Assembly (NCBI GenBank): GCA_965203575.1
Contig: OZ241894.1
Coordinates: 2,380,322-2,444,321 of the forward strand
Source: Candidatus Aldehydirespirator sp.
GTDB taxonomy: Bacteria > Actinomycetota > Acidimicrobiia > Acidimicrobiales > Aldehydirespiratoraceae
Direction: 5' to 3'
DNA length: 64,000 nucleotides
Shown here: positions 7,601 through 62,829 of the stretch, piece by piece
Layout of the letters: the number at the start of each line of letters is the position of its first letter
How positions within the stretch are numbered: the stretch's first letter is position 1
Notes under the pieces: generated by a model
Databases searched by the model: none
Told to the model about the DNA's origin: nothing
The model's input: the letters and a program-made list of their open reading frames with translations, nothing else
Translations under genes and position numbers: made by a program

Positions 7601-7609
7601 ACCAGGTCC

Positions 7610-10218: not shown

Positions 10219-10240
10219 AGTCGCATTCTGGCACGGTTGG

Positions 10241-10878: not shown

Positions 10879-10932
10879 GACTGCATTATGACAGCATCAG
10901 CAGCGTTTCGCAAGCAGATATTTCAGATTATG

Positions 10933-45468: not shown

Positions 45469-45990
45469 ATGGGTTATCCCCGCGAAGAGATGGAGGAGAT
45501 GTGGAGCCGGTGGACCGCGGCCAATGAGGCGGCGGAGGCGGCTGGCGACTGGACGGGGCTCGGAGCGTTCTACACCGAAGACGCGGTCTACACCTGGACG
45601 GTGGGCCACCACGGGGAGTTCGCCGCCCGGGGCCGCCAGGACGTCATCGACCACGTCCTGGTCTTCGAGATGATCGGGTTCGAGGGCTGGACCTACCCGT
45701 ATGAGAAGGTGGTGATCGACGACTCCCGGGGCGAGATCGTCGGGTACTGGAGCCAGGTCACCCCGTTCGAGGACGAGGCGGGCCGACGGATCCGGACCAA
45801 CGGCCTGGGGTGCTCGTGGTTCCGGTACGCCGGCGACTTCAAGTGGTCCGAGCAGCTGGACCTGTTCGACATCGACGATGTGCAGGGGGTCCTGAAGAAG
45901 CTCAACCGGCTCGGCCTTCTCAGCGAGGAGTTCAAGGCCCGCCAGCAGCGCTACGTCGACGGCACCGCGCCAGGATCGCGCTTCGTCTAG
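45469..45990 (+). CDS. SnoaL-like / NTF2-fold protein
   Basis: 173 aa; alpha+beta-barrel-type sequence (WTAANEAAEAAGDWTGLGAFYTEDAVYTW...). RBS gagggagcgg upstream of ATG 45469. Confidence 0.55.
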   Translation: MGYPREEMEEMWSRWTAANEAAEAAGDWTGLGAFYTEDAVYTWTVGHHGEFAARGRQDVIDHVLVFEMIGFEGWTYPYEKVVIDDSRGEIVGYWSQVTPFEDEAGRRIRTNGLGCSWFRYAGDFKWSEQLDLFDIDDVQGVLKKLNRLGLLSEEFKARQQRYVDGTAPGSRFV

Positions 45991-46007
45991 GCGCGGGGGA
46001 GCAGCAG

Positions 46008-46757: not shown

Positions 46758-46911
46758 TTCTAGCAAGTTAGCTTTAGATTGCTTGAAATAACAGATTGAA
46801 CATGTAGTATCGTTGTCCTGCCGCCTGTTGGGCTGTCAGGCCTGACGGCGGCCTCGGAGCAGCCCTCGCGGGCGCCCCCAGCCGATCAAGTTTCGAACGG
46901 ACGGAGGTCCC

Positions 46912-47334
46912 GTGATGGCCGCAACCCAAGCACAGCGCGCCGCGCTGTACACGCGCCTGGTGGACTCGATGGGCGACGAAGCCGCAGAAACCCTCATGGA
47001 CCAGCTCCCGCCCAGCGGGTGGGACCAGATGGCCACCAAGGATGACCTCGCCGGGGTCGAGCAGCGCCTACAGGCCTCCCTCGCGGTGTTGGCCGCCGAG
47101 ACGAACGCGAAGTTCGCCGAGAGCCACACCAAGCTTGTCGAGAGCCACGCAGCCTTGCAGGTCGCCATGCACCAGGGCTTCGCCGAGGCCGCCAAGGAGC
47201 GTACCGAGATCATCAAGGCTCAGGCTGAGATGATCAAGATCCAGGCCAAGCAACTCTACGTCATCGTCTCGGCCATCGCCGCAGCCACGATCTCGATCTG
47301 GGTAGCTCTGTTCACAATCGGCGCCGGCACATAG
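46912..47334 (+). CDS. coiled-coil protein with C-terminal TM anchor (DUF1640-like)
   Basis: ...WDQMATKDDLAGVEQRLQASLAVL...; heptad-like helix then IVSAIAAATISIWVALF. RBS acggagg before GTG/ATG 46912/46915. Confidence 0.6.
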   Translation: MMAATQAQRAALYTRLVDSMGDEAAETLMDQLPPSGWDQMATKDDLAGVEQRLQASLAVLAAETNAKFAESHTKLVESHAALQVAMHQGFAEAAKERTEIIKAQAEMIKIQAKQLYVIVSAIAAATISIWVALFTIGAGT

Positions 47335-47379: not shown

Positions 47380-47519
47380 CCCCGCCCCGCCCTCGGACAC
47401 GTGTCAGTGGCAGGAGGCTGAGCCACGGAGCCAGCGGAAGGCCCGACCGCTCACCGTCCGGTGAGGAGTCGGGCCCGCTTCCTTGGGCTAGTGCCCTCGG
47501 CGATCTCAAGTATGCAAGG

Positions 47520-48191
47520 TCACGCAGGTCTTCGCAAGCGTTGCCCGTGACGGAGCAGCAGAGCCGCAGCGGCCGCGATCAGCGACGCCGCTGCCAGGAC
47601 TTGCGGTCCGCAGCCGGTGGATGCCGCGGGGGCACGCTCGCGGGTTTGTTTGCTGTGCCGGTGATGGCGGCTTTCGGCCGAGTCGCCGTGTTCGATCAAT
47701 TCCTGTAGCCGCTCTTTGCGGTCCCAGGACTTGTCCCGGAGTTGTTGGACGGTGCTGCGGAGGTAGCCGTGCTCGGAGGCGTCGGCGAGCGCCATCAGTT
47801 CGACGTTCTCGTGCAGGCCGGCGATGGTGAGGTTGGCCGACCCGACCAGGAAGGCCTGCGGGGTTCCGGCATTGTTGCAGGCCGCCCACACCTTGAGGTG
47901 GGCCTCGGAGCGTCCCTGGTTGGAGCGGCCGGTGCGGTACCAGTTGAGCACGGTCACATTGCCCCGCTGGACGAAGTCGAGCGCAGCACGCCGGTCGGCA
48001 TGGGTGGCATGCGCGAAGTTGCGGCTCTTCATGTCGCCGATGAGCAGTGTCACCGGCCGGCCGCGGGAGCGCTTCGCGAGCCAGACGATTCCCTTCACGC
48101 TCGCCGATCCCACGCACACCACCAGCGGCCCGCTCGGATGCGCTGCCAGGAAGCGCTCCACCCGGTCCGCCGCAGTGTCGCCGAGAGCCAC
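47520..48191 (-). CDS. phospholipase D-family (single HKD) nuclease-like protein with hydrophobic C-terminus
   Basis: HLKVWAACNNAGTPQAFLVGSANLT is an H-x-K...GSxN HKD-type motif (the canonical Asp position is not conserved). One copy only, as in Nuc/BfiI-type nucleases. C-terminal VLAAASLIAAAAALLL segment; GTG start. Confidence 0.65.
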   Translation of the reverse strand: MALGDTAADRVERFLAAHPSGPLVVCVGSASVKGIVWLAKRSRGRPVTLLIGDMKSRNFAHATHADRRAALDFVQRGNVTVLNWYRTGRSNQGRSEAHLKVWAACNNAGTPQAFLVGSANLTIAGLHENVELMALADASEHGYLRSTVQQLRDKSWDRKERLQELIEHGDSAESRHHRHSKQTRERAPAASTGCGPQVLAAASLIAAAAALLLRHGQRLRRPA

Positions 48192-48395
48192 CCGAGCAAC
48201 TTATCGGTGTCCCGCACTCTCGGACGAGCGGCTGCGCGGCGGCTAAAGCCGATGCCTCTGCAACGACCCTCTCGTAGGAGCTTGCCCGGACATCAAGGGT
48301 CCCCAAGCCTCGGGTGGGCTGGAGTCGGCGGCGAGTCCGGAGCGGTGGGTCGGTGGTGAGTAAGATCGACCTGTCGCCTCGGGCTGGCAGGACGC

Positions 48396-49322
48396 ATGGA
48401 CAGGTTGTGGACGGACGACGACGAATCGAATCCAGTTGACGATTGGGTCGAGAGGGTCACGTCCATAGGGCGGTTCAAGAGCAGGGACAAGGACAAGCGC
48501 GCCCCCTACAAGCCGTTGTTGCTGCTGTGGATGATCGGTCGCTTGGCTGGGGGGCTGCCGGGCCGTGTGTCGTTCCGGGAGGCGGAGGAGGACCTGCAGC
48601 GGCTGCTGAACAAGCACCCTGTGGGCAAGTCGAAGCCGAAGGTCGAGAATCCGTTCGTGTACCTCGCAAGCGACCCGAATCTCTGGCGGGTTGAGGATTC
48701 GGGCGGCGGCAATGTGGCCCGCATGGAGCGGCGCAAGAAGATGAGCCCGCCTTTCCTGCGGGCGGAGGCGACCGGCGCGCTCGCGCCCGAGTTCGAGCTG
48801 GCGCTGCGAGATCCGAACGTGAGATCCCGTGTCGTGAACGCCCTGCTTCGGATGGAGTTCCCCGATTCGCAGCACGAGGAAGTCCTGCAGGATGTGAACC
48901 TCGGTCATGTGGTGGCGGTCGCGCCGGCACCCCGTGATCCGAAGTTCAGGATCACGGTGCTGCGGGCCTACGAGGATCGATGCTCGTTCTGCGGATACGA
49001 CCTGCGTCTCGGCGGCTCGCCGGTGGGCATCGATGCCGCCCATGTGCAGATGCACAGAAAGGGAGGGCCCAACCGCATCGAGAACGGGATCGCGCTCTGC
49101 GTGCAGCATCACCGGCTGTTCGACGCGGGCGCGCTCGGCCTGAGCCAGGATCATCGGATCCTGGTGAGCGAGGACTTGAATCTGAGCGACCATGATTCGG
49201 CCGCTCGCATCAAGAGCCTCGTCGGCGAGCGGATGCGCACACCCCTGCGCCGGTACAGCCTCCCGGCCTCCGAGCACATCGACTGGCACACCAAGAACCT
49301 CTTCAAACACCCCGCCCGCTAG
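48396..49322 (+). CDS. HNH endonuclease with N-terminal SBD-like (phosphorothioate-DNA-binding type) domain
   Basis: C-terminal CSFCGYDLRL...IDAAHVQMHRKGGPNRIENGIALCVQHHRLFDAGAL (HNH). N-terminal RAPYKPLLLLWMIGRL..., ENPFVYLASDPNLWRVED and ALLRMEFPDSQHEEVLQDVNL resemble the family I recall as ScoMcrA-type sulfur-binding-domain HNH enzymes. Confidence 0.65.
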   Translation: MDRLWTDDDESNPVDDWVERVTSIGRFKSRDKDKRAPYKPLLLLWMIGRLAGGLPGRVSFREAEEDLQRLLNKHPVGKSKPKVENPFVYLASDPNLWRVEDSGGGNVARMERRKKMSPPFLRAEATGALAPEFELALRDPNVRSRVVNALLRMEFPDSQHEEVLQDVNLGHVVAVAPAPRDPKFRITVLRAYEDRCSFCGYDLRLGGSPVGIDAAHVQMHRKGGPNRIENGIALCVQHHRLFDAGALGLSQDHRILVSEDLNLSDHDSAARIKSLVGERMRTPLRRYSLPASEHIDWHTKNLFKHPAR

Positions 49323-49400
49323 CCGCTGCGCTCAGGCGGCGCCGCGAGCGTCATTCCTCGGCAATGGGGTCCCGGTCGGTTCTACTAGCGCTGCTCAGGC

Positions 49401-49646
49401 TCAGGGCCGGTAGACGCGTCCGCGAGGCCCGACTCGCAGCACGACGACTACTCCGTCGTCGCGCTGCCGGTGGATGATTCGGAAGTCGCCGAACCTCACT
49501 GAACGGCAGCCGCTCAGCCTTCCCTGAAGACGCTTGCCCATGGAGGGGTCCGTGTCGAGGGAGGCGATGATCTCCAGCGCCCTCGAGCGGTCGGCAGCCG
49601 TGAGCCGGTCCAGGCCCTTCTGCGCCGGTCTAGAGAGGAGGGGCAT
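49401..49646 (-). CDS. RelE/ParE-family toxin
   Basis: ...DPSMGKRLQGRLSGCRSVRFGDFRIIHRQRDDGVVVVLRVGPRGRVY matches the RelE/ParE C-terminal consensus (RvGdyRiiY...v.vl.vghR..vY). Confidence 0.75.
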   Translation of the reverse strand: MPLLSRPAQKGLDRLTAADRSRALEIIASLDTDPSMGKRLQGRLSGCRSVRFGDFRIIHRQRDDGVVVVLRVGPRGRVYRP

Positions 49647-49989
49647 AGCGATCGAGAGGAAGCAAGTCGTCGTTCGCTATGTTGTTGTCGGCTTCTTCGA
49701 GGTCGGCCATCGCTTCCGGGTCGTTGAGCAGGGCCAGGGTCTCGAGGGCGCCCTCGGGATCGTTCCAGTCCAGTTCGGGATGCTGTGATCGCAGTCGGCG
49801 CGCGGAAGCAGCGTCCAGATCCTTCTCGCCCAGCACCGCCGGACGGTCCGCGAGGGTCGCCTCGGGCCTAGTGGCGCCGATGGGTCCCGAGTGCGCCGGT
49901 TGGTCCACGTCCCGATCGTAACTCAGGACCGCGACGGCACCCGCCACTCCGCCACCGCAGAGACGGCCGCGCACTACCAGTTTCGTCAA
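49630..49989 (-). CDS. putative Phd/YefM-like antitoxin (start uncertain)
   Basis: C-terminal ...ETLALLNDPEAMADLEEA... is typical of Phd/YefM antitoxins; overlaps the toxin start by 17 nt. The track start is a TTG overlapping the SNF2 stop; GTG 49908 is an alternative. The N-terminal half is atypical. Confidence 0.4.
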   Translation of the reverse strand: MTKLVVRGRLCGGGVAGAVAVLSYDRDVDQPAHSGPIGATRPEATLADRPAVLGEKDLDAASARRLRSQHPELDWNDPEGALETLALLNDPEAMADLEEADNNIANDDLLPLDRYAPPL

Positions 49990-51548
49990 GGAGCTAGGAG
50001 TTCACGAACTGCGTCAGGACGGTGCTGGAGGGCGTCGATGAGCTGGTCAAACGTCATCTCCTTGCGGTCCAGGAGAGGCTGAAGGCGGTCCTCGACGGTA
50101 TCGGCGCAAGTCAGGTAGTGAACGATGACCGGCTTGGTCTGGCCGATCCGCACCACGCGGTCGACGGCCTGCGAGTTGGTCGACGGGTTCCACCAGCGGT
50201 TGACGAAGATCACCCGGTTGGCCTCGGTGAGGGTGAGGCCCTCGCTGGCGACCCGCGTTGAGGCCAGCAGCACCCAGCAGTCGGGATGGGTCTTGAACCG
50301 CGCCACCGAACGCCTTCGTTGATCGAGCGGCTGCTCTCCGGTCAGCATGGCGGCGATGTTGCCATGGGCGGCGACTAGCCGTTTCTGTAGGTGCCGCAGC
50401 GGGTCGAGCATGTACGAGAACACGACCGTCTTGCACCCGTCGGCCATCGCGGACTCGGCGAGCTCGACAGCACGGTCGAGCTTGGCACTCGCGCCCGTCT
50501 CGGGATCGATGTCGCAGATTGATCGCAGCCGGTTGAACAGGGCCAGGTACCCCTCCTCGGAGCGACGGCCCATGGACGACAGGGCGGCGCTGTAGGCACT
50601 CCGCTGCGCGCCGTGAAGTCGGACCTTCTCGACGTGCTCGGTCGCTGCTGGCAGTTCCGGCAGAACGAGATCCTTGGTGCGGCGCAGCAGGTAGGGCCGG
50701 ACCCGGGAGCGCAGCGCGTCGATTCCGTGACGGTGGTCATCGATGGCGAATCGGCGGGGTTCGAGCAGTGACAGCAGGCAGGCAAGATCCTGCGAGTCGC
50801 GCTCCACGGGGGTACCGGTGAGGGCCCACACCCGCGGTGCGGCTATCCGGCGCATCGCCTGGTGAGCGAGCGACTCAGCCTTGCGGAGGCGGTGTGCCTC
50901 GTCGGCGACGATCAGGTCGGGCGGCTGGCCTGCAAGATCGTCCCAGAGCCCGCGCAGGTCTTCGTAGCTGGCTAGAAGGACATGTGCTCGGGCCACGGCG
51001 CCGCGCCAGTGCGCCGGGGTGAAGGTGCGGTTGGTGAACTCCAACCGTTGAGCGATGAGTTCGGGCGCCCACTTGTCGACTTCAGCTAGCCAGTTCGCAA
51101 GCAGTGTCCGGGGTGCGATGACGAGACACGACTCGATGCGGCCGTATCGGTACAGTCGCCTAATCGCAGCGATCACCTGAATGGTCTTGCCCAGCCCCAT
51201 GTCGTCCGCGAGGATCGCCTTGCGATTCTGCAGCAGCCAAGCAACGCCTTTGCGCTGGAACGGGTAGAGATCGTCGCGCACACCCGGCGGCAACAGGAGC
51301 GGCAGAACCCGGCGTAGCCTGCGATCACAGTTGCGCTCATACCCAGGCCGCGGATCGAACGCCAAGGCCAGAGAGTCGGGCGCTACTGCTCGTAGGCGGC
51401 GCGCCAAGCCGCCGTCCCACCTGACCAGTGACTCCGCCGCTTTGTGCAGTCGAGCGCTGCCGGACGATGCCTCAGGGGAGCACGCGATCTCGAACCGATT
51501 GACGTCTTCGGAGGCCGTTACCGATGATGAGATCTGTCGCGAGTCCAT
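49986..51548 (-). CDS. SNF2-family helicase/ATPase
   Basis: DMGLGKTIQ (motif I), DEAHRLRK (II), LTGTPVERD (III), and ...NPSTNSQAVDRVVRIGQTKPV (VI, QxxDRxxRIGQ). Confidence 0.9.
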   Translation of the reverse strand: MDSRQISSSVTASEDVNRFEIACSPEASSGSARLHKAAESLVRWDGGLARRLRAVAPDSLALAFDPRPGYERNCDRRLRRVLPLLLPPGVRDDLYPFQRKGVAWLLQNRKAILADDMGLGKTIQVIAAIRRLYRYGRIESCLVIAPRTLLANWLAEVDKWAPELIAQRLEFTNRTFTPAHWRGAVARAHVLLASYEDLRGLWDDLAGQPPDLIVADEAHRLRKAESLAHQAMRRIAAPRVWALTGTPVERDSQDLACLLSLLEPRRFAIDDHRHGIDALRSRVRPYLLRRTKDLVLPELPAATEHVEKVRLHGAQRSAYSAALSSMGRRSEEGYLALFNRLRSICDIDPETGASAKLDRAVELAESAMADGCKTVVFSYMLDPLRHLQKRLVAAHGNIAAMLTGEQPLDQRRRSVARFKTHPDCWVLLASTRVASEGLTLTEANRVIFVNRWWNPSTNSQAVDRVVRIGQTKPVIVHYLTCADTVEDRLQPLLDRKEMTFDQLIDALQHRPDAVRELLAP

Positions 51549-51601
51549 GGCATCAACTCGGCGGGCAGGATTGGGGTCCGAATGGCACCGTTGCGCCTCG
51601 C

Positions 51602-53017
51602 TCAGCCAACCACTCCCGCTTCGACTTCAAGCCACAATGAATCGGCCTCGGCTGCTGCGGAAGCCGGAAGATAGGCGTACCAGAGGCTGCGCAGCCCACC
51701 CGTTCCGCTGATCTCCTCCTCGGTCAACGGGTCGACGCCGCATTGCCAGCGAACAATGCGCTCCATCAACTGCATGCGCTTCTTGCGTTCCTCGTTGACG
51801 ATTCGCCAGGACGCGGAGGGATCATCTGTCGGTACCAACATGATGTACTTCCATGGTGGGAGGTGGGCATCCCAACTGATCTGGCTCAGCGGATAGAGCG
51901 CCTCGCAGGCTTGCTCGACTGTCATGGGTTCTCGTGACATCGTGTCAGGCATGACTGAGTCGTCAAGTAGGGCCCTTGCCAGATCCGCCACCATTTGTTG
52001 AACCACCGGCCAGAAGAGTACGCAGTCCTGTGATGCTTCGGGGTCGTCTCGCTGCTCAGGAGGCCGGTGATCTCGCATCTGTCTGCCATCTTCACTAATG
52101 ATTGGCAGGGTTTCAATCAGAGCCTCCCAGTACGTGAATACCTCTACCTCTAAAGCATCGATCTCCTCATCCGAGGGACGGAACTTCTTGTAGACTTGCA
52201 GCTGCTCCTGGTTGGCGCCCCAACCCGTGTTGCGTCGTTGTCTGCTCGCCAGCAGTCGAACATTGAGTTCGTACAGAACCTCTAGCGTAGTGAAGAACGG
52301 GTGACTGATTCCAAGGTTCTTGCCAGGCTCCATCCGTATGCGGCCACTGTCGAACTCCGATTCACTGAAGCTGCTGAAGAATGGGTGTTGGGAAACGAGT
52401 CGTCGAGTGACGATAGCTAAGGCGTCGTCTTCATCCATGATGATGTTGTCGTATTGTGACATCGCCTTTGCATATCGATTCAAATGGCCAAACAGTCGCC
52501 TATATCGCACAATGAAATTCGAGGTCTCCTCGAGCTGCTGAGGAGTCACAATGAGTACGCTCACTTCCTCATCACGAAAATGCTCAGGTGGCCTGAAGTC
52601 GGTCGTGTGGTCCAGGAGACTGCGGATTGCTGCGAGACGGTGCTGCCCGTCGAGCGCGTAGTAGTTCTCCGTGCCGTCGAAGGTGAGCACGCCGAAGGCG
52701 TCAGTCAACCGTCCTTTTCCTAGCAACTCGAACTTCGGGTCTTCCTCAAGGCTGACTGGGTGCCACTTGGGGTCGCCTCCGAGAGCTGCGACGACGATGG
52801 CCCCAAAGAACCGGTCGTCATGTCGGGCAAGGTATCTGGCGATCTCGCCCGTGGCGCGGTTCTTGTTGAGGTTGCGCTGAATGGCATCTGACAATTGGGA
52901 GGCACCGTGGATCTCTTCCGCGTAGCGGATGTTCTGAGCGATCTCTACCATCGACATTCGTACGAGATAGTATTGCCAGCGCCCCATTCGGGCTTGCACG
53001 GCGGGATAGATTTGCAC
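51602..53017 (-). CDS. DGQHR-domain (DndB-like / ParB-fold) protein
   Basis: ...NYYALDGQHRLAAIRSL... DGQHR signature preceded by QRNLNKNRATGEIARYL and FFGAIVVA. GTG start with aggtg RBS. Markedly lower GC than neighbours. Confidence 0.8.
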   Translation of the reverse strand: MQIYPAVQARMGRWQYYLVRMSMVEIAQNIRYAEEIHGASQLSDAIQRNLNKNRATGEIARYLARHDDRFFGAIVVAALGGDPKWHPVSLEEDPKFELLGKGRLTDAFGVLTFDGTENYYALDGQHRLAAIRSLLDHTTDFRPPEHFRDEEVSVLIVTPQQLEETSNFIVRYRRLFGHLNRYAKAMSQYDNIIMDEDDALAIVTRRLVSQHPFFSSFSESEFDSGRIRMEPGKNLGISHPFFTTLEVLYELNVRLLASRQRRNTGWGANQEQLQVYKKFRPSDEEIDALEVEVFTYWEALIETLPIISEDGRQMRDHRPPEQRDDPEASQDCVLFWPVVQQMVADLARALLDDSVMPDTMSREPMTVEQACEALYPLSQISWDAHLPPWKYIMLVPTDDPSASWRIVNEERKKRMQLMERIVRWQCGVDPLTEEEISGTGGLRSLWYAYLPASAAAEADSLWLEVEAGVVG

Positions 53018-53037
53018 GATGCACCTGCTTTCACAAT

Positions 53038-53514
53038 CTAGGCGGGGACTGCCTGCTTGATTCGTCCTGATACCGGTTGTGCTGATGGGATCACTCGGTT
53101 CGCGGGTGGGTCCAACACAGTCACGAGAATGTGCTCTGTTTGGTTGAGCCAGTTACTCGACCTCGTCGTGGCATTCTCAGGTACTCGGGTGTATGAGAAG
53201 CGCAGGCGTCCGAATATCGAGCGGAACTGCTTGATACGTTCGTTTTGTGGGTTCGGCGCAGCGTGTTGCCAGAAGCGCCGACGTAGGTTCTTGGTTTGGC
53301 CGACGTACAACACACCCGAGACTTCACTCGGAAGCGAGTAGATGTCTGACAGGATCGTTGGAGAAACATGAAGTATGTAGATTCCTCTTGCTTGTGGCAC
53401 CGCTGAGTCGAACAGCGTGTCCAACCAGGTCGAGTGCCAGTCGGTGCCTTCCAGCGCAGAGATGACGCGGCTCCAAGCGTCGGCGCTTAGGGATAGCCCT
53501 CTAGATCCTGTCAT
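53038..53514 (-). CDS. small GIY-YIG-like nuclease-domain protein
   Basis: GIYILHV...VLYVGQTKNLRRRFWQH...NQTEHIL...N: GIY, YVG, Arg, Glu and Asn elements in the order of GIY-YIG domains, though the GIY-to-YVG spacing is longer than usual. The start overlaps the upstream stop by 14 nt. Confidence 0.55.
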   Translation of the reverse strand: MTGSRGLSLSADAWSRVISALEGTDWHSTWLDTLFDSAVPQARGIYILHVSPTILSDIYSLPSEVSGVLYVGQTKNLRRRFWQHAAPNPQNERIKQFRSIFGRLRFSYTRVPENATTRSSNWLNQTEHILVTVLDPPANRVIPSAQPVSGRIKQAVPA

Positions 53515-56071
53515 GTCCCTGGATGCTCACTGATTTGGGTGCAGGTTCACCGGATTCCTTGAATCGAGCCGCCAGCGGGGCGGCGATGGTGATGCCGCCG
53601 ATGGTGGGAGGCAGTTGCTGGAAGGAAGTAGGCGTCCCAGCGTGGAGTGGCGAGCCTTTGGTCGGTAGCGGGTTCTCGGGTCTCATCGCCAGACCGAAGG
53701 TGACTTCCGAGGGATTGTGAATGGTGAGGCTCACACTGGCACCTTCATTGATTCCGAGTGCTCGCAGCGCCGGGCCCAGACGACCGATCTCGGGCCCGTG
53801 CATCGAGGTCTTGCGCCAGATGACTGAGATGTCCTGACAGCCGTGCGGTGAGCGGACGGCAGCTGTGGTCTTGGTTCCGAAGTAGCAACCCAGCGCGGCC
53901 GCGACGGACGGTGGAACGCTGTGAAGGCTGTAGCCGTCGAGGTGCCGGTCGTACACTGAGAACGACCAGTACGGGTCGTCGTTGTCGTCGCGTCCGTCGA
54001 TCACGTCGTCGAGGCGGCCGACATCGATTCCGGTGCCGTCAGCCTCACTCACCCAGCCGTGCTCCACTCGGAACGCGGGCGTGTTCAAGTACGCCCAGAC
54101 GCTTCCCTCGTTCACTCCGAAGAGGCGGGGAAGCTCGTCAAGAACGCGGTTGAGGCGGGTTGATCCTCCGTCCTCGTTGATGCGCTGCACGATCTCGGCG
54201 GGAATGCCCTCGTAGATGTCGTCTATCCACTCCCGCAGGCCCCAGCGGTGCTTGTCAGCTCGGGCGACTGAGGGGATGTTCGACAGTGCGCCGGCCACCT
54301 GTCGTTCGGACAGGCTGGACTCCTGGGCGAGTTCTGCCTTGGTGGCGGGCGAGCCGATCTTGAGCAGAGCAGCCTTGACCCGGGCTCGAACCGTAGCTCG
54401 GGGCGCGACGTGATCGAACAGGCAGTGCCATCCGATCCAGCGTGTGAGCAGCTCTGAGTGGTCGTGCCACTCGGGGGCGAGCGCACTCCGTAGCCGATCG
54501 GTGGAAATCAGGCCAGCATCGTCTACGAGCTCGTCGACAGCGCCCTTCAGTGCCTCAGCAGCCTCTACAGCCGCAGGGCTGAGGCAGAGTCCCTCGCGGC
54601 ACTCGTAGCCGAGCATGGCGCCTAGCATTCTGCGAGCCACGAGAAGGGCTTGCTGCGCCACCTCGTCTTCGGGCTTAGGAAGTAGCTCAGTCGTCGTAGT
54701 CTCGGTCTCGAGAACTGTCGTCACTTCACCGAGACGCTGATAAGCGATCAATTCGAGAATCCTGAGGGCCGGACCCGCGGCATCTTCCAGTTGCTCCTGA
54801 GCCTTGCGGGCGATCTGACGAATTCGCTCTCGTGACAGTCCTACGCGCTCTGCGAGTTCCGCGAGCGTCATCGGCGAGTCCGATGCAACACGTTCGAGCA
54901 CAGCTAGCCGCTCAATATCGGTCATCTGCGCCAGCGTTGCGCTGACCATCTCGACCGCTCGATCAGTGACCGTGGGGGCATCGATCCCCAGCGGCAGACC
55001 ATCCAGCCCAGCGTCCGCTTCAGCTGCCGCGATCAGATCCGATAGATCCAGCCGGAGCAGATCCCCGAAGGTCGTGGCCCCTCGGAATTCAGCGGCAGCG
55101 GCAGCGATCAGCTCGACCGCGTCGGAATGCAGGACCGCTTCGGGAATTGTTCGGTGCTGAAACGTGACCTCAGCGTGCGCTGAGGCTTCGGCGGTCTGGG
55201 CCGTGCCGACTGCAGCCGCCGGCCATTCGAAGTTCTCGGCTGCCTCGAGTACACACATCAGGTCAAGTAGCGACGCGATCCCAAAGCTGGGCAGACGCAT
55301 CAACTGCCCGAGCGTTGCCTCGGAGAGCGCCCCGCTAGTCAAGCCGGCGCGAAGACAATTGCGTGTCCGGTTCGCAAGCGGCAGGCGGTCAAGTTCGTCG
55401 ACGTCCAAGTGGGGCGGGAGTACCTTGAGACCCTCGGGCGGCAGCATTCTCATGGCCATGTCACGCAGCAACCAGGCCGACACAGCCTGGACGGGCTCGT
55501 TGTAGTGCTCCCAGAAGCGTGCCAGGTCCCGAACATGCCGAGTCGCCGGGTAGGCGCTCGTGAACTCCCGCGGGAGCGTCTTGTGACCATGAGACACCAG
55601 ATACCAGCGCGGTAGAAGGGGGGTGGGCGGGCTGCCCCAAGGTGCTGGCGGGTCGCTGGATGCAATGGAGGGCAAGTCGTCCGCAGGAACGTCGAAATGC
55701 TGAGGCTCAGCGGTCGGCTCACGATTCCTTGAGGCCCCATTCAGCCGCAGCGCGACGCGTCGCCGGCCGGTGACGACTAGATCGACCGACTGTTCGGAGC
55801 AGGCCCCGATGTTCTTCAGAGGCTCGGCGATACTGAGTACGACCGTTCGTGGCGGATCGCCCTCTTCCAAGCAGACCGTCAGTTTGCGGCAACCCATAGG
55901 ATCCTCGACCGCGACGCGAGTGAGCGCGCCGGGCTTGCAGCCGAGTTGGGCGGCGACCTCCTTGGGGAAGGCGACCCGACGGTTGTCCTGAAGGAGGGCG
56001 TCGGTTACTCGGAACGTCCAGGCTGGATTGCCGTCGGTATCCCTCCGCGTTGATGCGACCGCGCTTCTCAT
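53501..56071 (-). CDS. 856-aa multi-HTH protein: related N- and C-terminal ~90-aa domains, RpoA-alphaCTD-like HhH, sigma-70 region-4-like HTH, winged-helix segment
   Basis: ATG 56071 forms an ATGA overlap with the sspD-like stop. NRTRNCLRAGLTSGALSEATLGQLMRLPSFGIASLLDL (alpha-CTD-like). MTLAELAERVGLSRERIRQIARKAQEQL (sigma r4-like). Terminal domains share W(T/S)FxVxD...(F/V)PxxVAAxLGC..G..T..AV..P.GC. The track's extra 121 N-terminal codons overlap sspD out of frame and are rejected. Confidence 0.7.
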   Translation of the reverse strand: MRSAVASTRRDTDGNPAWTFRVTDALLQDNRRVAFPKEVAAQLGCKPGALTRVAVEDPMGCRKLTVCLEEGDPPRTVVLSIAEPLKNIGACSEQSVDLVVTGRRRVALRLNGASRNREPTAEPQHFDVPADDLPSIASSDPPAPWGSPPTPLLPRWYLVSHGHKTLPREFTSAYPATRHVRDLARFWEHYNEPVQAVSAWLLRDMAMRMLPPEGLKVLPPHLDVDELDRLPLANRTRNCLRAGLTSGALSEATLGQLMRLPSFGIASLLDLMCVLEAAENFEWPAAAVGTAQTAEASAHAEVTFQHRTIPEAVLHSDAVELIAAAAAEFRGATTFGDLLRLDLSDLIAAAEADAGLDGLPLGIDAPTVTDRAVEMVSATLAQMTDIERLAVLERVASDSPMTLAELAERVGLSRERIRQIARKAQEQLEDAAGPALRILELIAYQRLGEVTTVLETETTTTELLPKPEDEVAQQALLVARRMLGAMLGYECREGLCLSPAAVEAAEALKGAVDELVDDAGLISTDRLRSALAPEWHDHSELLTRWIGWHCLFDHVAPRATVRARVKAALLKIGSPATKAELAQESSLSERQVAGALSNIPSVARADKHRWGLREWIDDIYEGIPAEIVQRINEDGGSTRLNRVLDELPRLFGVNEGSVWAYLNTPAFRVEHGWVSEADGTGIDVGRLDDVIDGRDDNDDPYWSFSVYDRHLDGYSLHSVPPSVAAALGCYFGTKTTAAVRSPHGCQDISVIWRKTSMHGPEIGRLGPALRALGINEGASVSLTIHNPSEVTFGLAMRPENPLPTKGSPLHAGTPTSFQQLPPTIGGITIAAPLAARFKESGEPAPKSVSIQGHDRI

Positions 56072-56925
56072 AGGGCGCAGACTGTGCAGGGTTCGGTGTC
56101 GTCTTCTTCGTTGAAGGCGTCGGCTAGGGCTTCGATCAGGGGGAGGTTGGCCCTGGTCTTGCTGGCGCGGGCCATGGCGGTCTCGTGGCGTTCGAGGATC
56201 TGGTCGCGGCGGTTGCGGAGCTGGACAAGGGTCTCGCCGCCGGACCAGGTGTACTGGCGGCCTCGCATGGCTCGGTCGCCGAAGTCGGCGTCGCCGTCGA
56301 CGCCGGCGTCCTGGAGGACCTTCTGCTCGATGGCCACCGCCCGCTCGAACAGGTCCGGGTGGCGCTCGGCGAGGCCGATCCACTCGGCCTTGCGCTGGTA
56401 GAAGCAGAAATAGCAGCCCGAGCGGGTCCGCCACTCGTAGTAGGCGGGCAGGCCGATCCCGGCATCGTCTAGGAGCCTCAGCACCTTCGCATGGTCGATG
56501 CCGTCCTCCACGAACGGGAAGCGGGTCTTGATGTTGGGCTTGGTGGAGACGTAGCCCTTGCGGTTCGACTCGTCCGCCCGGATCGCCACGTACGACACCG
56601 CCGGGGCGTCACCGATCCACTCCTCGATCGGCTTGATCTTCATGTTCTTGGTGCACCACCGCATCTGCGGCGACGGCAGCGCCCCCCTGAACACCTCGAA
56701 CCAGTGGTCGAAGCCCCGCGACGCGTTGAGCCTGACGATCGGCCGGCCCAGGATCACCTCCAGGCGGGTCAAGTACTCGTAGGTCTCGGGCAGCTCCGCA
56801 CCGGTGTCGCAGAAGAAGTACTCCATCTCCGGCACGCGGTCCCGCATATACACCGCCAAGGCGCTGGAGTCCTTCCCGCCCGAGATCCCGCAGATGTGGC
56901 GCACCGGCGCCTCCGGCTCACCCAC
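56068..56925 (-). CDS. sspD: PP-loop ATP pyrophosphatase, PAPS-reductase family (SspD/DndC-like)
   Basis: ICGISGGKDSSAL (SGGxDS PP-loop); 285 aa (short, SspD-like rather than full DndC); 8-nt overlap with the upstream ATPase gene. Confidence 0.75.
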   Translation of the reverse strand: MGEPEAPVRHICGISGGKDSSALAVYMRDRVPEMEYFFCDTGAELPETYEYLTRLEVILGRPIVRLNASRGFDHWFEVFRGALPSPQMRWCTKNMKIKPIEEWIGDAPAVSYVAIRADESNRKGYVSTKPNIKTRFPFVEDGIDHAKVLRLLDDAGIGLPAYYEWRTRSGCYFCFYQRKAEWIGLAERHPDLFERAVAIEQKVLQDAGVDGDADFGDRAMRGRQYTWSGGETLVQLRNRRDQILERHETAMARASKTRANLPLIEALADAFNEEDDTEPCTVCAL

Positions 56926-59900
56926 CGGCCACCCTCCTTCGCGCCGCGCCGACCGGGCTCTCGTCAGCGGGAGCCGAGCTGAGGTCGCTGGCTCGGGACT
57001 CGGGCAGCAGGCGCTCGCTCAGCAGCGCCAGGAGGCTCTGGTGGGCGGTCAGGGCCGAGCCCGTGATCTGTGCCAGATCGGCCAGCACCTCTTCCAGCGC
57101 GTCCTCCAGCTCGGGTCGGCGCCTGCCGTCGATGCCCACCAGGCGGATGTACTCGCTTCCGTCGGAGCGGGTGACGGTCACGCGCAGCGCGTCGAACGGG
57201 CCCCTGCCGTCGGCACGGCGCTCCGCGTGCAGGGCGACCAGCCGATGGAACGCCGCCAGTCTCTCGGGCAGCTCGCGGTCGAAGCGCAGCCGGTCGTCGT
57301 CGGTCCATTCCGCAGGGGCCTTGCGGGCCACGACAGTGGCGACCGCCGCCATCCAGGCCGCGTCCGACTCGACGCCGTCGTTGGCCAGGGCGAGCACGAA
57401 CGCCCTTACCTCGGGGTCGAGGACCTCGTCGCCGAGCAGAGCGGCCTCGCCCGTCACCGGCATCCGGCTGCCCGCTCCGCAAGCGTCGAGCAGCGACTCC
57501 ATCAGACCGTCCAAGAGTCGATCCAGGCTCGACTCCAGCTCGGCCAGAGCGGCTGCGACCGCCCTCGCGAATTCGGCTGCGAACTCACAACCGGTCGCGT
57601 CCGCAGCCACGGGGCGGAAGCCCAGCGCTCGGGGCAGGTCGGTGAACAGCAACTCGTCGGGCTCGACTGCTTCGGTCAGAGCGTCCCGCACGGCTCGCGA
57701 CTCGGCGCTCACGCTGCTCGTGCGGCGTGCGTAGTTCTCGAGTCGGCTGATCCGCAGGACAAGGCTGGTGACCACGGCGAGAACATTCGCCACTCGTCGT
57801 TTGCCCCCTCCGATCCGGTGCTCAGCGCGTGTGCGAGCCAGTGCAGGCTGCGAGTGATCCCCGGCGTCCACCGAGAGTCCCAACTGCTCGGTGAGAGCCT
57901 CCACGACCATGAGCCGCCCGCCGCTGGCGTTGGCGAAGTGCTTGACATCGAAGTGGCCCGGATTGCGCACCATCCGCTCGGAGACCTCGGGTGACAGAAC
58001 CGGCTTGAACGTTCCGTGCTCGTAGATGGCGACCTCGTCGCGGAAGGCCAGCAGACCCGCAGTGACGAAGACGGGTACCACCGCAGCCTTCATGCCGACA
58101 GGGGGCGAACGCAGCGCGGCGTGGACGCTGTTCAGGTTGATCCGCCGGTCGGTCGAGCGCCGGAACTCGCCCTCGAGGATCTCCCAAGCGGGCTTGAGCG
58201 TCTCATCGGCGGGCGGTCCGAAGGACATGGTGCCGCCGCGGGGATCGACGGCGTGAAGCCCGGTCCGCAGCAGGAACGCTCGATACATAGCCGTCTCCGG
58301 GCCGTATCCCTCGAATCCCAGATCGGCGATGCCGGACTCGCCGCGTTCGATCATGGCTTCCAGGAGCAGGCGGCGCGACTTGGCTCCCTGGGAGGTGAGT
58401 TCGCTCCGGTTGAGCATCTCATTGCCAACCACGGGGGTGGACGGGTAGGCGATGTCCGCGGCCGATGACAGGGCGGCGCTGCCCCGCCCGCCGGCCAGTT
58501 CGGTTGGGCCTGCGCCGTCCTCGCCCCCCAGCAGGATCCAACGGCAGGATTCGGCGCCGAACGTGTCGGCCAGGGCCTGATCGAAGGCGACTCGGGTCTG
58601 CGCCAGCCGCTCGCCCAACTCGCGCCGCGCCACCTGGTCCTCGGCTACCGCGGGGTCGTCGAGCACCGAAGCCACTGCGGCGATCTCCCGGGCGGCCGCG
58701 TCGAGCGCCGACACATCCCGGGGCAGCGCCGCCACCACCGGCTTGGACCCGTCCACGGATTGGGCGACGGTCGGCGGGCGGCCCGAAGGGTCGACAACGA
58801 GGAGCGCCTCGCCGTCGTAGGGGGAGAACGGCTCGGGAGCCGTGGCCTGCTCGCCCGCTTCGGCATAACGCCGGCGGAAGACGCGCAACACATCGTGCTC
58901 CGCGCTGTGGCGCGCCGCCACGACCGGCTCCGGCCGGTCGGTCTCCGCCACCATCCCAGCGAGCGGCCTGCGCTGCATTCTCTGACGGGCGGAGTCGAGG
59001 AGCAGACCGACGTCGACGTCGCTGCCCTGCCATATCCGGTACTCGTCGGCGAAGTCCCGGAAAGTGACGATCCCCATGCTCTCCAGATCGGCGAGAGCGG
59101 CGTGGGCGCCCCTGCCGGACATCTCCAGGACCTGCCGGGACGCCCGGATGGTCCCCGTCGTGGACACCAGGTTCAACAGAGCGACGGACTTGGCCGTGCG
59201 GGCCTGCGACGGCGTGAGGCCATGGGTGTCGCGCAGCCGGGTGGCGACCTCACTCCAGCGGCTCGACTGGCGCGCCGAGGAGATGCTGAGGGCGCCGCTC
59301 GCTACGAAGTAGTCGTACACCGCTTCGAGGCCAAGGGACGGCAGCGGCCCCCTCGCCGGAAGGTTCGCAGCGCTGAGGAACGACAGGACGCCCGCAGGGT
59401 GCGGGCCGGCGAGGAAGGAGAAGAGCGTTCGTTCGTGCTGGCCGTAGCGGCTGCACAATTCGGGCAGCACGAGCGCCGCCAGCGGGTGAAGCGGGTAGCA
59501 GGCGGCCAGGACGGTCGGGTCGGCGAGGTCCGCGATGCCCAAGGCACGCATCTTCCGGGCGTGCGAGCGCGCCCAGCGGTCGATGCGGGTCCGGAGGTGT
59601 TCGTCGCGGACGTCGAACACGGTGCCGATGAGGGATCGGGTCTGCCCGGCCGAGTCCACGAAGGACACGTCCTCGAAACGGCCCTGCACCTTGGCCCACT
59701 CACGGCGCTGAGCGCTGTCGGCGCTGGCCAGGCAGTCGTCGAGGGACACGTGCTGCAGAGTGACCACGAAGATCGGCAGTCCCGATCCCTGGCCGGCCTC
59801 CGCGAGACGTTGCAGCAGATACGGATCCGCGCCGTGTCCGTCACGAACGGCTTCTAGGTTCTTGCCGAACTCGTCGATGATCAGCAGCAGCGGCGCGTCC

Positions 59901-60477
59901 TCGGCCAGCCGGCGCGCGATATCAACCAGGATCGAGGGTGAAGGGCCGCCTCCCCGGATGTCGTCGTGAGCGGTGTCCTCCAGGGAGCGGATCAGCTCTG
60001 GAGCGTCACCGAGGCAATCCGCAGGGGGGGGGTCTGGTCGTCGCGGAGAACGGCGGATTGCAGGGCGCGCAGCACTGTGCGGGCCAGCGGCTCGCGCTCC
60101 GCGGTGACGAGCGCGCGGGTAAAGCCGCGGTTCAGGGTTCCGTGGCGCCGGTGGGCCCTCCGGATCAGGTCGCCCGATGCGTCCGACGCGTCGTCGATGA
60201 TCCCGAGGGCTGAGCGCCGGAGCTGCGAGCGGCCGCCGAAGGCCGCGTCCAGCAGCAGGGCGAGCGACGACTTACCCGATCCGTACGGACCGGTGAGCGA
60301 CCAGGCACCGCCCGCGGGTCCCGTCGCTGCGGTAGTTGCGATGCGCTCGACCACATCGAGGCCTCGGGCGGTGAGGACGTATCCGTCCAGCGGTTCGGGC
60401 CGGGCGAGGTCGCGCTCGAGGTTCGCCGAGCGGGCGAACCGGCCGCTGACCGAGATGGCGTCACCAAGGGTCGGCAT
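56918..60477 (-). pseudogene. sspC: ~1187-aa P-loop NTPase (SspC-like) split by a frameshift in a C9 (G9 on + strand) tract
   Basis: 5' part 60477..59992 carries GPYGSGKSS (Walker A). The frame shifts at 60024-60032. By hand translation the downstream frame is open from at least 60059 and reads ...PPPADCLGDAPELIRSLEDTAHDDIRGGGPSPSILVDIARRLAEDAPLLLIIDEFGKNLE... (Walker B), joining the 949-aa ORF. One extra C would fuse both parts. Confidence 0.75.
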
Positions 60478-61532
60478 CAGCCGGCTCCCGCCAGGGCGTG
60501 CAGGCTCCGGAGGCTGTCTGTGGAGTTGCGGCCTGCGCCGAGGTCCTCGAGAAGGTTGTCGTCCACCGCCAGATCCCCGATGCAGCCGGCGCACACTTCC
60601 GTCGCCGACGAGCCGTAGTAGTCGTTCAGGACCGCCGTCGCGATCTCTGCCGGGTCGCCCGAGCAGGCGAAGTGCCACGCCCCGGCCGGGGATGCGAGGC
60701 TCAGCCCTTCCGTTCGATCCACGGCAGGCTTGACCGCGGCCAGGAGCTCCGTCTCGTTCAGTTTGAACGCTCGGCCGGGCGCTCCGGGCTCGTGGGCCAG
60801 GCGGCTGAGCGTGACGGTCCTGCCGCCGCTGCCGGTGCGTTCGATGTAGTCGAGCACGGCGTGGACGGCAACCTCGGACGGCAGGGTCGGCTTGGGTCCC
60901 AGCGTGAAGCGAGGCAGTCCCGTTGCGGGAGACCGCCGCAGCAGGTTCAGTTCCCGCAGCGGGCAGTCCAGCAGGTCGTCCACGCTGATGCGGCGGGAAT
61001 GCTCCGACGGCGCATAGGTGCGCAGCAGGGCGCCGACGTCCTTCCTGACCGACGACTCGTGCGGCGCGGCCCAGTCCGCGGAGGCCTCCAGCTGCGTGGA
61101 GACCGCCCCGGCGAGGTCGGTGTCGCTGAACTCGACCGCGTTGAACTCGTTGAACGCGAGCCACCAGACCGGCAGACGCGAGGGCGGCGCCAGCAGCAGC
61201 CAGTGCAACAGCCAGAGCGTTCCGGGATCCTCCATGTAGGGGTCCCAGCCCTGCTCACCGAAGAGCGCGTGGCCGCGGCGGGTGGGCACGAACTGTGGCG
61301 CCCTGCGGTTCGGGGAGTGGGGATCCTCAGTGATGACCTTGGCGGCGAGGCCCCAGAAGCGGATGGCGCGCACCATGTTCTTGCCCACGCCTATTACCAC
61401 CGGCGCGTCCGGCCGCCCGAACGTGTAAGGATCGGCGGCTGCGACCGCATAGGCCTTGCGGAACCAGCCGAAGCGGGGGTGGAAGGTCTCGTGCCGGGCG
61501 AATGAGCGAACGGCAGCGTCCGGCAACCTCAT
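60477..61532 (-). CDS. sspB: DUF4007-like protein (SspB-like)
   Basis: N-terminal MRLPDAAVRSFARHETFHPRFGWFRKAY matches the HETF..R.GW..K signature I recall for DUF4007/SspB. ATG 61532 has a gggag RBS 8 nt upstream (GTG 61571 alternative). Its stop shares a base with the sspC-like ATG. Confidence 0.65.
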   Translation of the reverse strand: MRLPDAAVRSFARHETFHPRFGWFRKAYAVAAADPYTFGRPDAPVVIGVGKNMVRAIRFWGLAAKVITEDPHSPNRRAPQFVPTRRGHALFGEQGWDPYMEDPGTLWLLHWLLLAPPSRLPVWWLAFNEFNAVEFSDTDLAGAVSTQLEASADWAAPHESSVRKDVGALLRTYAPSEHSRRISVDDLLDCPLRELNLLRRSPATGLPRFTLGPKPTLPSEVAVHAVLDYIERTGSGGRTVTLSRLAHEPGAPGRAFKLNETELLAAVKPAVDRTEGLSLASPAGAWHFACSGDPAEIATAVLNDYYGSSATEVCAGCIGDLAVDDNLLEDLGAGRNSTDSLRSLHALAGAG

Positions 61533-61680
61533 TCGCCGGCTCCCGCATTCACGTCGATGAAGATACCGCACCCGTGTGACAGCGACCTGGGTCCTGCAAG
61601 CGAGTCCGTCAGACGGTCTGCCCTACACCCAGTTGGGCATCGGCATCACTGGCGCGACGCGGCGGGCTTGGTTCTGGCGA

Positions 61681-62829
61681 TCAGGTCAGGGCGCGGACAC
61701 GCTTGACGGCAGCGGTGGCGCTCTCTACTGCGGCGTCGACATCAGCCTCGGTGGTGAAGCGGCCGAGACTGAAGCGCACCGACTCGAAGGCGGTCTCATG
61801 GGACCGGCCCATGGCCACGAGAACCTCCGACGGCTCGATCGATCCTGCGCTGCAGGCACTGCCGATGGACACTGCGACAGGGTCCATGTTGGCCATGACC
61901 GCCTCGGCGTCGGCGCCCACGAAGCACAGATTGGCTGTGTTGGGCAGTCGCCTCGACGGGTCGCCGTTCTGCAGCACGCGGGGGAGGCTGGCCTGCAGTT
62001 CGGACACGAGGCGGTCGCGCAGCGCTCCTACAGTCTCGGACTCCCGTTCGCGCTCGTCAGCGGCTATACGGGCGGCGGTACCAAGGCCGACGATGCCAGC
62101 CACGTTGAGCGACCCCGAGCGCAGGCCTCGCTCGTGGCCGCCGCCGTGGAGCAGGGCTTCGAGTTGCCTGAGGCTGTGCCGGGTGCCGACCAATGCGCCC
62201 ACCCCGCCCGGGCCGCAGATCTTGTGCCCGCTCAGCGACACCAGGTCCACGCCCAGCGCCTCCATGTCGAACGGCAGGCGTCCCGCCATCTGGGTGGCGT
62301 CACAGTGGAACAGCGCGCCCGCAGCGTGTACCCGCTCCGCGATCTCACCCGCCGGGTTCAGAACGCCGGTCTCACTGTTGGCTGCCATGACCGACACAAG
62401 CACAACATCGTCGCCGACCATCTCTTCCACGGTGGCCGGCTCGACGAAGCCACCTGCGGTCACCTCGATCACATCCAGCTTCACCAGGCCATAGTCGGCG
62501 AGCCACCTCGCCGTACCTGCCACCGAAGCGTGCTCTACCGCGGAGACGAGCATCCTTTGCCTGTTTTGGGGGGCGGCCTCAAGGGCACCCTGCAGAGCCA
62601 GGTTGTTGGCCTCGGTCGCTCCCGAAGTGAACACGACCCCCGATGCGCGCCCGCCCACCAGAGCCGCTACGTGTTCACGGGCATCGTCCACCGCGGCCGC
62701 CTGTCTGCGTCCGAAGCGATGGACTGACGAGGCGTTGCCGACCGAGTCGGTCAGGATCGGCATCATCGCCTCCGCCACCCGCGGGTCGAGCGGAGACGAT
62801 GCGTTGTAGTCGAGATAGACCTCCCTCAC
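61681..62829 (-). CDS. sspA: class V cysteine desulfurase (SspA/DndA/IscS-like)
   Basis: SLSGHKICGP (PLP Lys), GSACSAGS (persulfide Cys) and HGGGHERGLRSG. GTG start with ggaggtggc RBS. Confidence 0.8.
   Translation of the reverse strand: MREVYLDYNASSPLDPRVAEAMMPILTDSVGNASSVHRFGRRQAAAVDDAREHVAALVGGRASGVVFTSGATEANNLALQGALEAAPQNRQRMLVSAVEHASVAGTARWLADYGLVKLDVIEVTAGGFVEPATVEEMVGDDVVLVSVMAANSETGVLNPAGEIAERVHAAGALFHCDATQMAGRLPFDMEALGVDLVSLSGHKICGPGGVGALVGTRHSLRQLEALLHGGGHERGLRSGSLNVAGIVGLGTAARIAADERERESETVGALRDRLVSELQASLPRVLQNGDPSRRLPNTANLCFVGADAEAVMANMDPVAVSIGSACSAGSIEPSEVLVAMGRSHETAFESVRFSLGRFTTEADVDAAVESATAAVKRVRALT

Follow-up and report, generated by a model that had tools for sequence, protein, structure and literature searches.

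A two-domain SBD-HNH phosphorothioate reader as a recurrent companion of sspABCD writer genes in sponge-associated bacteria

We have analysed a stretch of 64,000 nucleotides (referred to here as the window) from Candidatus Aldehydirespirator sp., contig OZ241894.1, in which a gene for a nuclease of the kind that recognizes phosphorothioate (PT) modification of DNA (the reader) lies near an array of ssp genes for that modification (the writer). The reader joins a sulfur-binding domain (SBD) at its N-terminus to a C-terminal HNH nuclease domain, and by its gene content the neighbouring array is a true sspABCD writer cluster, as an earlier note on this DNA had recognized: sspA, sspB, sspC and sspD were each matched (PADLOC, Pfam). 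Our principal observation is that this protein belongs to a clade of readers, mostly from sponge-associated bacteria, whose genes recurrently accompany sspABCD writers. We found no report of a two-domain SBD-HNH protein linked to sspBCD in the literature searched, and the gene itself adds one more member to an established family of PT-DNA-recognizing nucleases. Coordinates of the features discussed are collected in Table 1.

The linkage was examined at 79 relative loci (designated by L numbers), which came from a scan of one genome per species of the Genome Taxonomy Database (GTDB) and were read with flanks of up to 10 kb on each side; writers were called in them by tblastn with the window proteins, by a scan for the PP-loop motif and by PADLOC. 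Most of the loci are from sponge-associated metagenome-assembled genomes (MAGs), of Acidimicrobiia (Ca. Aldehydirespirator, Poriferisodalis), Poribacteria and others. We observed ssp genes within 10 kb of the reader at 20 of the 79 loci, ssp remnants at 3, and at one locus the end of a contig within the accessory module that is described below; DndC was nearby at 3 more. About two thirds of the relatives have no writer within 10 kb, and of the 4 relatives annotated as plasmid-borne, the 3 whose flanks were read all lack one. A reader next to a writer had been called paradoxical in the earlier note, which proposed co-occurrence statistics for ssp and dnd clusters as a check. Together with the Dnd and BREX-4 precedents considered below, the counts, in a sample that was selected by pattern, replace the paradox with recurrent pairing.

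Of the 15 closest relatives whose downstream flank is complete, 12 are linked to ssp. We rejected these 12 loci as independent events, because they are syntenic with the window and represent a single defence hotspot with changing contents; independent support for the linkage therefore rests on other lineages and other gene arrangements. At L022 and L032, the reader lies upstream of an sspABCD cluster that runs in the same direction. In Poribacteria (L042, L043, L045, L048), Fimbriiglobus (L064) and Azotimanducaceae (L065), readers that are 31-35% identical to the window protein lie on the same strand as the writer and at most about 140 bp after its last gene, which is sspD in each case except Fimbriiglobus, where it is sspC and no sspD was found. 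The poribacterial locus L048 has 2 tandem SBD-HNH paralogues after sspD (positions 9920-11939), which are 51% identical to each other and are followed only by housekeeping genes. The ssp-linked readers are scattered over a neighbour-joining tree of the proteins. At L043, the reader is followed by a short prokaryotic Argonaute (Piwi) gene. At L045, the gene behind the reader codes for 926 aa; it was considered as a counterpart of the 856-aa helix-turn-helix (HTH) protein of the window and rejected, as the two do not match, and its product is a TIR-STAND protein. Two plasmid-borne relatives, L089 (Euzebya; 6561-10798) and L088 (Azospirillum; 5650-10861), come right after very large helicase-type genes, for a helicase-related protein and a strawberry-notch-like NTPase, the genes overlapping by 4 bp in one case and lying 28 bp apart in the second, which suggests that the nuclease family has a further recurrent partnership.

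The open reading frame (ORF) of the reader, from ATG at 48396 to TAG at 49320-49322 on the forward strand, codes for 308 aa, and its GC content at third codon positions (GC3), 0.85, is near host-gene values. The earlier note had assigned it to the SBD-HNH family from 4 sequence blocks, all of which are present in this ORF: RAPYKPLLLLWMIGRL at aa 35-50, ENPFVYLASDPNLWRVED at aa 84-101, ALLRMEFPDSQHEEVLQDVNL at aa 149-169 and the HNH block CSFCGYDL...HVQMHRKGGPNRIENGIALCVQHHRLFD at aa 196-243. Profile, solved-structure sequence and fold comparisons bear this assignment out. The protein matched NCBIfam NF045808 with 219.9 bits (curated cut-off, 180 bits), aa 16-304 aligning with positions 2-284 of the 284 in the profile. 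By phmmer against PDB sequences, the match to the SprMcrA SBD (7CC9, 7CCD, 7CCJ) had E=1.2e-7 over aa 14-169, and ScoMcrA was matched through both its SBD and its HNH domain. An AlphaFold2 model, built with 77 homologues as input (predicted local distance difference test, pLDDT, 88.7), was compared with the PDB by Foldseek; the SprMcrA SBD 7ccd was the top match (template modelling, TM, score 0.72 on the target, probability 1.00), the ScoMcrA SBD 5zmo had a TM score of 0.77, the Hga SBD was also matched, and the HNH half of the model matched TagI, VcaM4I and ScoMcrA.

Pfam HNH_2 was matched at aa 196-248, with C196, C199, C235 and H238 as zinc ligands and H216, N230 and H239 as catalytic residues; nearly all relatives retain this CCHNCHH pattern. 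The N-terminal domain had no match in our local copy of Pfam even at E<=1, so that we relied on NCBIfam, PDB and Foldseek for it, and homologues of the protein carry a precomputed PF26340. No SRA domain was matched in Pfam, PDB or Foldseek, only a short linker (aa ~170-180) lying between the 2 domains; a head domain is absent; and no DUF262 or DUF1524 match was obtained with Pfam, PADLOC or NCBIfam. The protein is thus a genuine two-domain SBD-HNH protein of the SprMcrA type, having an N-terminal winged-helix SBD and a C-terminal zinc-stabilized HNH domain of predicted nuclease activity, and the label "ScoMcrA-type" given to it earlier is imprecise for this shorter architecture. The family is sizeable and ordinary, as 327 clusters in a library of 1.84 billion representatives matched at E<=1e-30, and PGAP already gives plasmid-borne relatives this family name. 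A scan for sigma-70 promoters and terminators around the gene was uninformative.

Table 1. Positions in the window of the reader gene, its domains and pocket codons, and of neighbouring genes
Feature	Positions	Strand	Basis
PLD-like (NgoFVII-type) nuclease	47520..48191	-	Pfam RE_NgoFVII, PLDc_2; weak PADLOC DrmC, ZacB
SBD-HNH gene	48396..49322	+	family annotation "phosphorothioated DNA-binding restriction endonuclease"; NCBIfam NF045808, AlphaFold2
Sulfur-binding domain, aa ~14-170	48435..48905	+	phmmer vs SprMcrA SBD, Foldseek
Pocket codons Y38-K39-P40	48507-48515	+	alignment to solved SBDs
Pocket codons N85-P86	48648-48653	+	alignment to solved SBDs
Pocket codon Y89	48660-48662	+	alignment to solved SBDs
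HNH nuclease domain, aa ~180-250	48933..49145	+	Pfam HNH_2, alignment to ScoMcrA HNH
ParE-family toxin	49401-49646	-	Pfam ParE_toxin 3e-10
119-aa ORF, putative antitoxin	49630-49989	-	upstream of ParE toxin; no family match
Accessory module after sspD (four genes)	49986..56071	-	Pfam, PADLOC, NCBIfam matches
SNF2 helicase (accessory module)	49986-51548	-	PADLOC ZorD/DpdE/DrmD helicase models
DGQHR/DndB-like protein (accessory module)	51602-53017	-	PADLOC DndB
GIY-YIG nuclease (accessory module)	53038-53514	-	
856-aa protein, sigma-70 region-4-like HTH (accessory module)	53501-56071	-	
sspD (PP-loop/PAPS-reductase-like)	56068..56925	-	SGGKDS motif, GC3 0.93, PADLOC SspD 1e-109
sspC (DUF499/BrxC-like ATPase), split by -1 frameshift	56918..60477	-	PADLOC, three-frame translation
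sspC, C-terminal piece	59767-56918	-	PADLOC SspC 7e-238
sspC, N-terminal piece	60477-59992	-	PADLOC SspC 1.5e-36
G9 tract (C9 on coding strand), sspC frameshift site	60024..60032	-	orthologue alignment
sspB (DUF4007)	60477..61571	-	Pfam DUF4007 3e-78; PADLOC SspB 3e-99
sspA (cysteine desulfurase)	61681..62829	-	PADLOC SspA 1e-132; NCBIfam DndA/IscS-like

Three explanations for the coexistence of reader and writer had been offered in the earlier note: that the reader targets a different PT sequence context or strandedness, that the writer is off, or that the domain has diverged, the Tyr-Pro of the sulfur pocket being Asn-Pro here. The residues that form the pocket are H116, R117, Y164, P165 and A168 in ScoMcrA (PMC6224610), Y31, Q32, Y78, P79 and A82 at the same positions in SprMcrA (PMC7470945), H25, K26, L75, P76 and H79 in Hga (PMC10602919), and Y38, K39, N85, P86 and Y89 in the window protein. 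The lid Tyr (ScoMcrA Y164, SprMcrA Y78) and the small residue at A168 are thus replaced by N85 and Y89, respectively. Asn-Pro is indeed present where it was said to be; as a sign of divergence it is not supported. In an alignment of 120 homologues, Y38, K39, P40, P86 and Y89 are each conserved in 116-120, and position 85 is Y in 48, N in 26, F in 23, H in 14 and D in 6. In the literature, ScoMcrA Y164 is conserved in just 7 of 23 homologues and the A168 position is also poorly conserved (PMC6224610), so that neither position defines the family, and the Hga SBD, with Leu at the Y164 position, binds all contexts (PMC10602919). We take Asn-Pro, from the variability of position 85 in the homologues and from this literature, to be normal variation at a specificity position and not decay. 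Judged from the solved homologues, a hydrophobic pocket of Y38, K39, P86 and Y89 with the variable N85 would take up the Rp sulfur of PT. The most variable segments in close orthologues, aa ~52-58, 66-85 and 104-118, correspond to the DNA-contact loops of solved complexes, and the HNH domain is the least variable part, being nearly invariant. Residue 85 had no association with ssp linkage, ssp-linked genes having N, F, Y, D or Q there.

We consider it most unlikely that the SBD has lost sulfur recognition altogether, leaving a PT-independent HNH nuclease or a DNA-binding protein of SprMcrA ancestry. Such a loss would be in keeping with the replacement by N85 of a Tyr that SprMcrA needs, the Ala mutant of which nearly abolishes binding (PMC7470945), and with the Pfam blank for the N-terminal domain. 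However, the core of the pocket is kept in 116-120 of the 120 homologues, position 85 varies across the family and the Hga SBD, with Leu there, binds all contexts (PMC6224610, PMC10602919), the SBD fold is retained, and PF26340 is carried by the homologues.

The frameshift that the earlier note had reported in sspC is present in the sequence and maps to a G9 homopolymer. One added C on the coding strand (C10) restores an uninterrupted SspC, which then reads "...DDQTPPPADCLGDAPELIR...", and the tracts of orthologues agree with their frame states: C10 in L001, L003 and L012, which are in frame, C9 in L011 and C11 in L021, which are both out of frame. The 64-kb window has just 2 homopolymer runs of at least 8 bases. 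The pattern fits either slipped-strand ON/OFF phase variation or homopolymer error in long-read MAG assemblies; a run of CCC is not very improbable by codon use, Pro being coded by CCG 246 times and by CCC 219 times. Independent copies of the tract of this strain were not obtained by exact-protein look-ups, and 2 metagenome pattern scans yielded no match or chance matches only.

These observations bear on the explanation that the writer is off, in which a frameshifted sspC, whether a pseudogene or a phase-variable gene in its OFF state, leaves the cell without PT for the reader to attack. The frameshift is real as the window is read, it is located in 1 of only 2 long runs, and the orthologue tracts match it, so that the explanation may stand for the window sequence. 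It does not stand in general: uninterrupted sspC genes (~1160-1300 codons, stop to stop) lie beside intact readers in at least 8 related genomes (L001, L003, L012, L017, L022, L045, L048, L065), and an OFF writer therefore cannot explain the coexistence generally. Moreover, the remaining ssp genes of the window are intact, with host-like codon bias, a one-base homopolymer error is possible in a long-read assembly, and the searches named above found no independent copy of the tract. We regard this explanation as very unlikely.

Homopolymers were also seen elsewhere. The other long run of the window is G10 at 5496-5505, ~50 bp upstream of a gene for 1183 aa (1895-5446, minus strand) whose product starts with a signal-peptide-like sequence. 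G/C runs of 12-17 nt occur in several related islands, among them L024:15898, L030:18312, L035:17764, L055:18384 and L040:11133-11147; a C16 run lies at the sspB/sspC junction of L022 (13449-13464) and a G17 run ~30 bp past the SBD-HNH gene of L046 (10892-10908).

A different PT context or strandedness is plausible, and it is the explanation that we prefer as the most likely of the three. The mechanism proposed is that the SBD pocket would take up the Rp sulfur of a PT link and that the reader would act as an autonomous, type IV-like, PT-dependent nuclease, which would spare the sparse single-strand marks of the resident Ssp writer and would cut incoming DNA with another PT pattern, either double-strand marks of the Dnd type or marks in another sequence context. 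The island would then consist of a "self-mark" arm and a "foreign-mark" arm, comparable to E. coli McrBC and Mrr beside hsdRMS, and the recognition surface of the reader would diversify on its own. In the immigration control region of E. coli (mcrBC-hsdRMS-mrr), a writer and modification-dependent nucleases adjoin and have non-overlapping specificities; the region is an analogy only, as it concerns base methylation and not backbone sulfur, and there is no homology.

Several observations favour such an autonomous nuclease. Within the close clade, SspC distances correlate with SspD distances (rho 0.77), and those of the SBD-HNH protein are uncorrelated with either (rho 0.11 and 0.17 for SspC and SspD, respectively). 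L001 and L011 are 93% identical in SspC and 98% identical in SspD, yet their readers are only 71% identical and differ exactly at pocket residue 85 and in the DNA-contact loops. We distinguish two allele types of the reader, one with "KVENPFVYLAS" and the loop "RMERRKKMSPPF", the other with "RVGFPFVYLGT" and the loop "KMPQATKESPVF"; the L002 reader is a hybrid of the two. In the same hotspot, the reader is intact in L004, L007, L015 and L016, where ssp is decayed or absent. Family biochemistry is in agreement: to our knowledge, all characterized SBD nucleases cut PT-DNA and not unmodified DNA. SprMcrA does not bind CpsCA, the Ssp motif (PMC7470945), and restriction by Hga is only 10-fold for hemi-PT vs 1000-fold for double-strand PT (PMC10602919), from which we infer why a reader could coexist with Ssp marks. 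The independent reader alleles, the persistence of the reader without ssp, the absence of writers near most relatives and the biochemistry of the family, taken together, lead us to favour an autonomous PT-dependent nuclease that tolerates resident marks and cuts foreign PT patterns.

Other observations weigh against this interpretation. The polar N85 stands where Y or L is found in characterized pockets, and the bulky Y89 takes the place of an Ala in ScoMcrA, the A168I mutant of which has half the binding (PMC6224610). The distance correlations come from 9 related loci of one syntenic hotspot, the pairs of which are not independent, and the 79 loci were picked by 2 peptide patterns and are neither random nor phylogenetically independent. 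That the reader comes immediately behind sspD in several phyla suggests that reader and writer are expressed together and are perhaps tied more closely in function than is necessary for a free-standing type IV enzyme. Because the sample is small, related and selected by pattern, we give the preferred mechanism about an even chance of being correct.

A tighter tie could mean that the reader is a cognate Ssp effector, comparable to SspE and DndI, and that its SBD would dock on host PT as a signal of self and thereby restrain or license the HNH domain, so that only unmarked invading DNA would be damaged. We consider this rather unlikely, although a number of facts fit it. The gene follows sspD directly and on the same strand in Poribacteria and Azotimanducaceae, and occupies a like place in Fimbriiglobus; the only nucleases beside sspBCD at L048 are the 2 SBD-HNH copies, before housekeeping genes begin; and PADLOC matched no SspE or SspFGH among the island genes scanned, with the limit that its library version may lack models for SspF, SspG and SspH. 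In published work, no partner is known for 84% of sspBCD clusters (PMC8092258), both SspE and DndI are HNH nucleases that sense PT (PMC9646914, PMC11662687), and SBD-SRA-HNH proteins have been proposed as restriction partners of Dnd (PMC10853773). On the other hand, the protein lacks the NTPase switch domain on which discrimination by SspE and DndI depends, its alleles vary independently of near-identical writers, one writer at L048 has 2 diverged readers, the reader persists intact without ssp, and the characterized members of the family cut PT-DNA and not unmodified DNA.

A more far-reaching form of this idea is that sspABCD and the two-domain SBD-HNH protein constitute a distinct, unreported Ssp defence that is widespread in sponge symbionts, with a third type of effector beside SspE and SspFGH. 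The SBD would read resident single-strand PT to tell self from non-self, and in one lineage the writer would be toggled by slippage in the poly-C tract of sspC, which would be tolerable only with a nuclease that is harmless without PT. We hold this to be unlikely. The autonomous nuclease remains the reading that we prefer.

Comparison with known systems places the protein closest to SprMcrA of Streptomyces pristinaespiralis (7CC9, 7CCD, 7CCJ), with which it shares the two-domain architecture, a similar length, the NCBIfam family, a Tyr at the position of ScoMcrA H116 and a Pro at that of P165. SprMcrA is the best SBD match by both sequence and fold, yet SBD identity is only ~25%. The pocket is Y-K...N-P..Y in the window protein vs Y-Q...Y-P..A in SprMcrA, the base-contact loop is ERRKK vs HGD, and SprMcrA, unlike the window gene, has no described link to a PT writer. 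With ScoMcrA of S. coelicolor, a type IV enzyme of head-SBD-SRA-HNH architecture (5ZMM, 5ZMO), the window protein has in common the SBD fold and an HNH domain whose zinc ligands are Cys and His and whose catalytic triad is H...N...H. It differs in having no head and no SRA, so that no reading of 5-methylcytosine or 5-hydroxymethylcytosine is expected, and in the substitutions H116 to Y, Y164 to N and A168 to Y. SspE and DndI (DUF262 NTPase and DUF1524 HNH) are likewise PT-reading nucleases beside PT writers, and in some relatives the SBD-HNH gene takes the usual place of sspE after sspD; however, their reader domain is unrelated, the window protein has no NTPase and thus no known switch, and there is no sequence similarity.

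There are 2 precedents for an SBD/McrA-type HNH nuclease in or beside a PT modification operon. In the Dnd loci of 698 taxa, Krishnan et al. described a wHTH(SBD)+SAD(SRA)+HNH gene, for which they proposed the part of restriction arm (PMC10853773). In a BREX type 4 PT system of Bacteroides, brxP and brxC have between them an mcrA gene that is dispensable for PT synthesis (2026; PMC12914056). Those proteins have three domains or are linked to Dnd or BREX-4, whereas the window protein has two and is linked to sspABCD; the function of such pairings is putative. Lutz et al. observed dnd clusters beside fewer than 3.6% of SBD-HNH homologues and treated them as outliers (PMC7461809).

In the window, the reader gene is convergent with the ssp array and divergent from the PLD nuclease gene on its other side. 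The earlier note had placed it 0.7 kb from a phosphorothioation operon. This is correct for the end of the extended array, a co-directional minus-strand series that begins with sspA and runs to the stop of the SNF2 gene (49986), 664 bp from the end of the SBD-HNH gene; the nearest writer gene, sspD, lies 6.7 kb away. A mechanical ORF of 977 aa (53501-56434), the first ~120 residues of which are spurious and rich in Arg and Pro, had hidden sspD, which we recognized by GC3 and by the PP-loop motif SGGKDS; the HTH protein itself probably starts at the Met near position 56071. The accessory module that follows sspD has a clearly lower GC content (56-66%) and fits no single known system in PADLOC, in which the HTH and GIY-YIG proteins had no real match. 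The same set is present in L002, L006, L008, L012 and L014, and in L017 without the HTH protein; in L045 of Poribacteria, genes for GIY-YIG and DGQHR proteins are likewise paired close to ssp. Such a pair may correspond to SspE/DndI split in two (ParB-like NTPase and nuclease); alternatively, the DGQHR protein may act as a regulator like DndB.

The SNF2 gene is separated from the SBD-HNH gene by the ParE toxin gene and a small ORF (49401-49989), copies of which are found at other positions in L008, L010, L013 and L039. The PLD nuclease gene adjoins the SBD-HNH gene in L001, L004 and L012 and is 2.5 kb from it in L016; in L004 and L016 the 2 genes are near each other with no ssp nearby. The island as a whole (~47500-62850) was compared across the sponge-symbiont MAGs L001, L004-L008, L011, L015, L016, L021 and L039. 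It lies at a conserved hotspot of the chromosome, with an SDR gene and a small ORF (45810-47334) on one side and a glyoxalase-family gene (62896-63444) on the other; across these MAGs the flanking genes are 85-97% identical, and what the island contains differs or has been deleted in part.

SBD-HNH readers of PT are usually cast as enemies of PT writers. Here, a clade of such readers is linked to ssp writers recurrently, across several lineages and in differing gene orders. A functional linkage would mean either that Ssp systems have a new type of effector, or that in bacteria a "self" PT pattern is routinely combined with a nuclease directed at "foreign" ones. What is worth following, in our opinion, is the Ssp linkage, the natural alleles of the reader and the possibly phase-variable writer. 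SBDs are under development as PT-directed targeting tools, and the natural reader alleles, with N85 or F85 and different DNA-contact loops beside near-identical writers, make up a panel for the study of SBD specificity.

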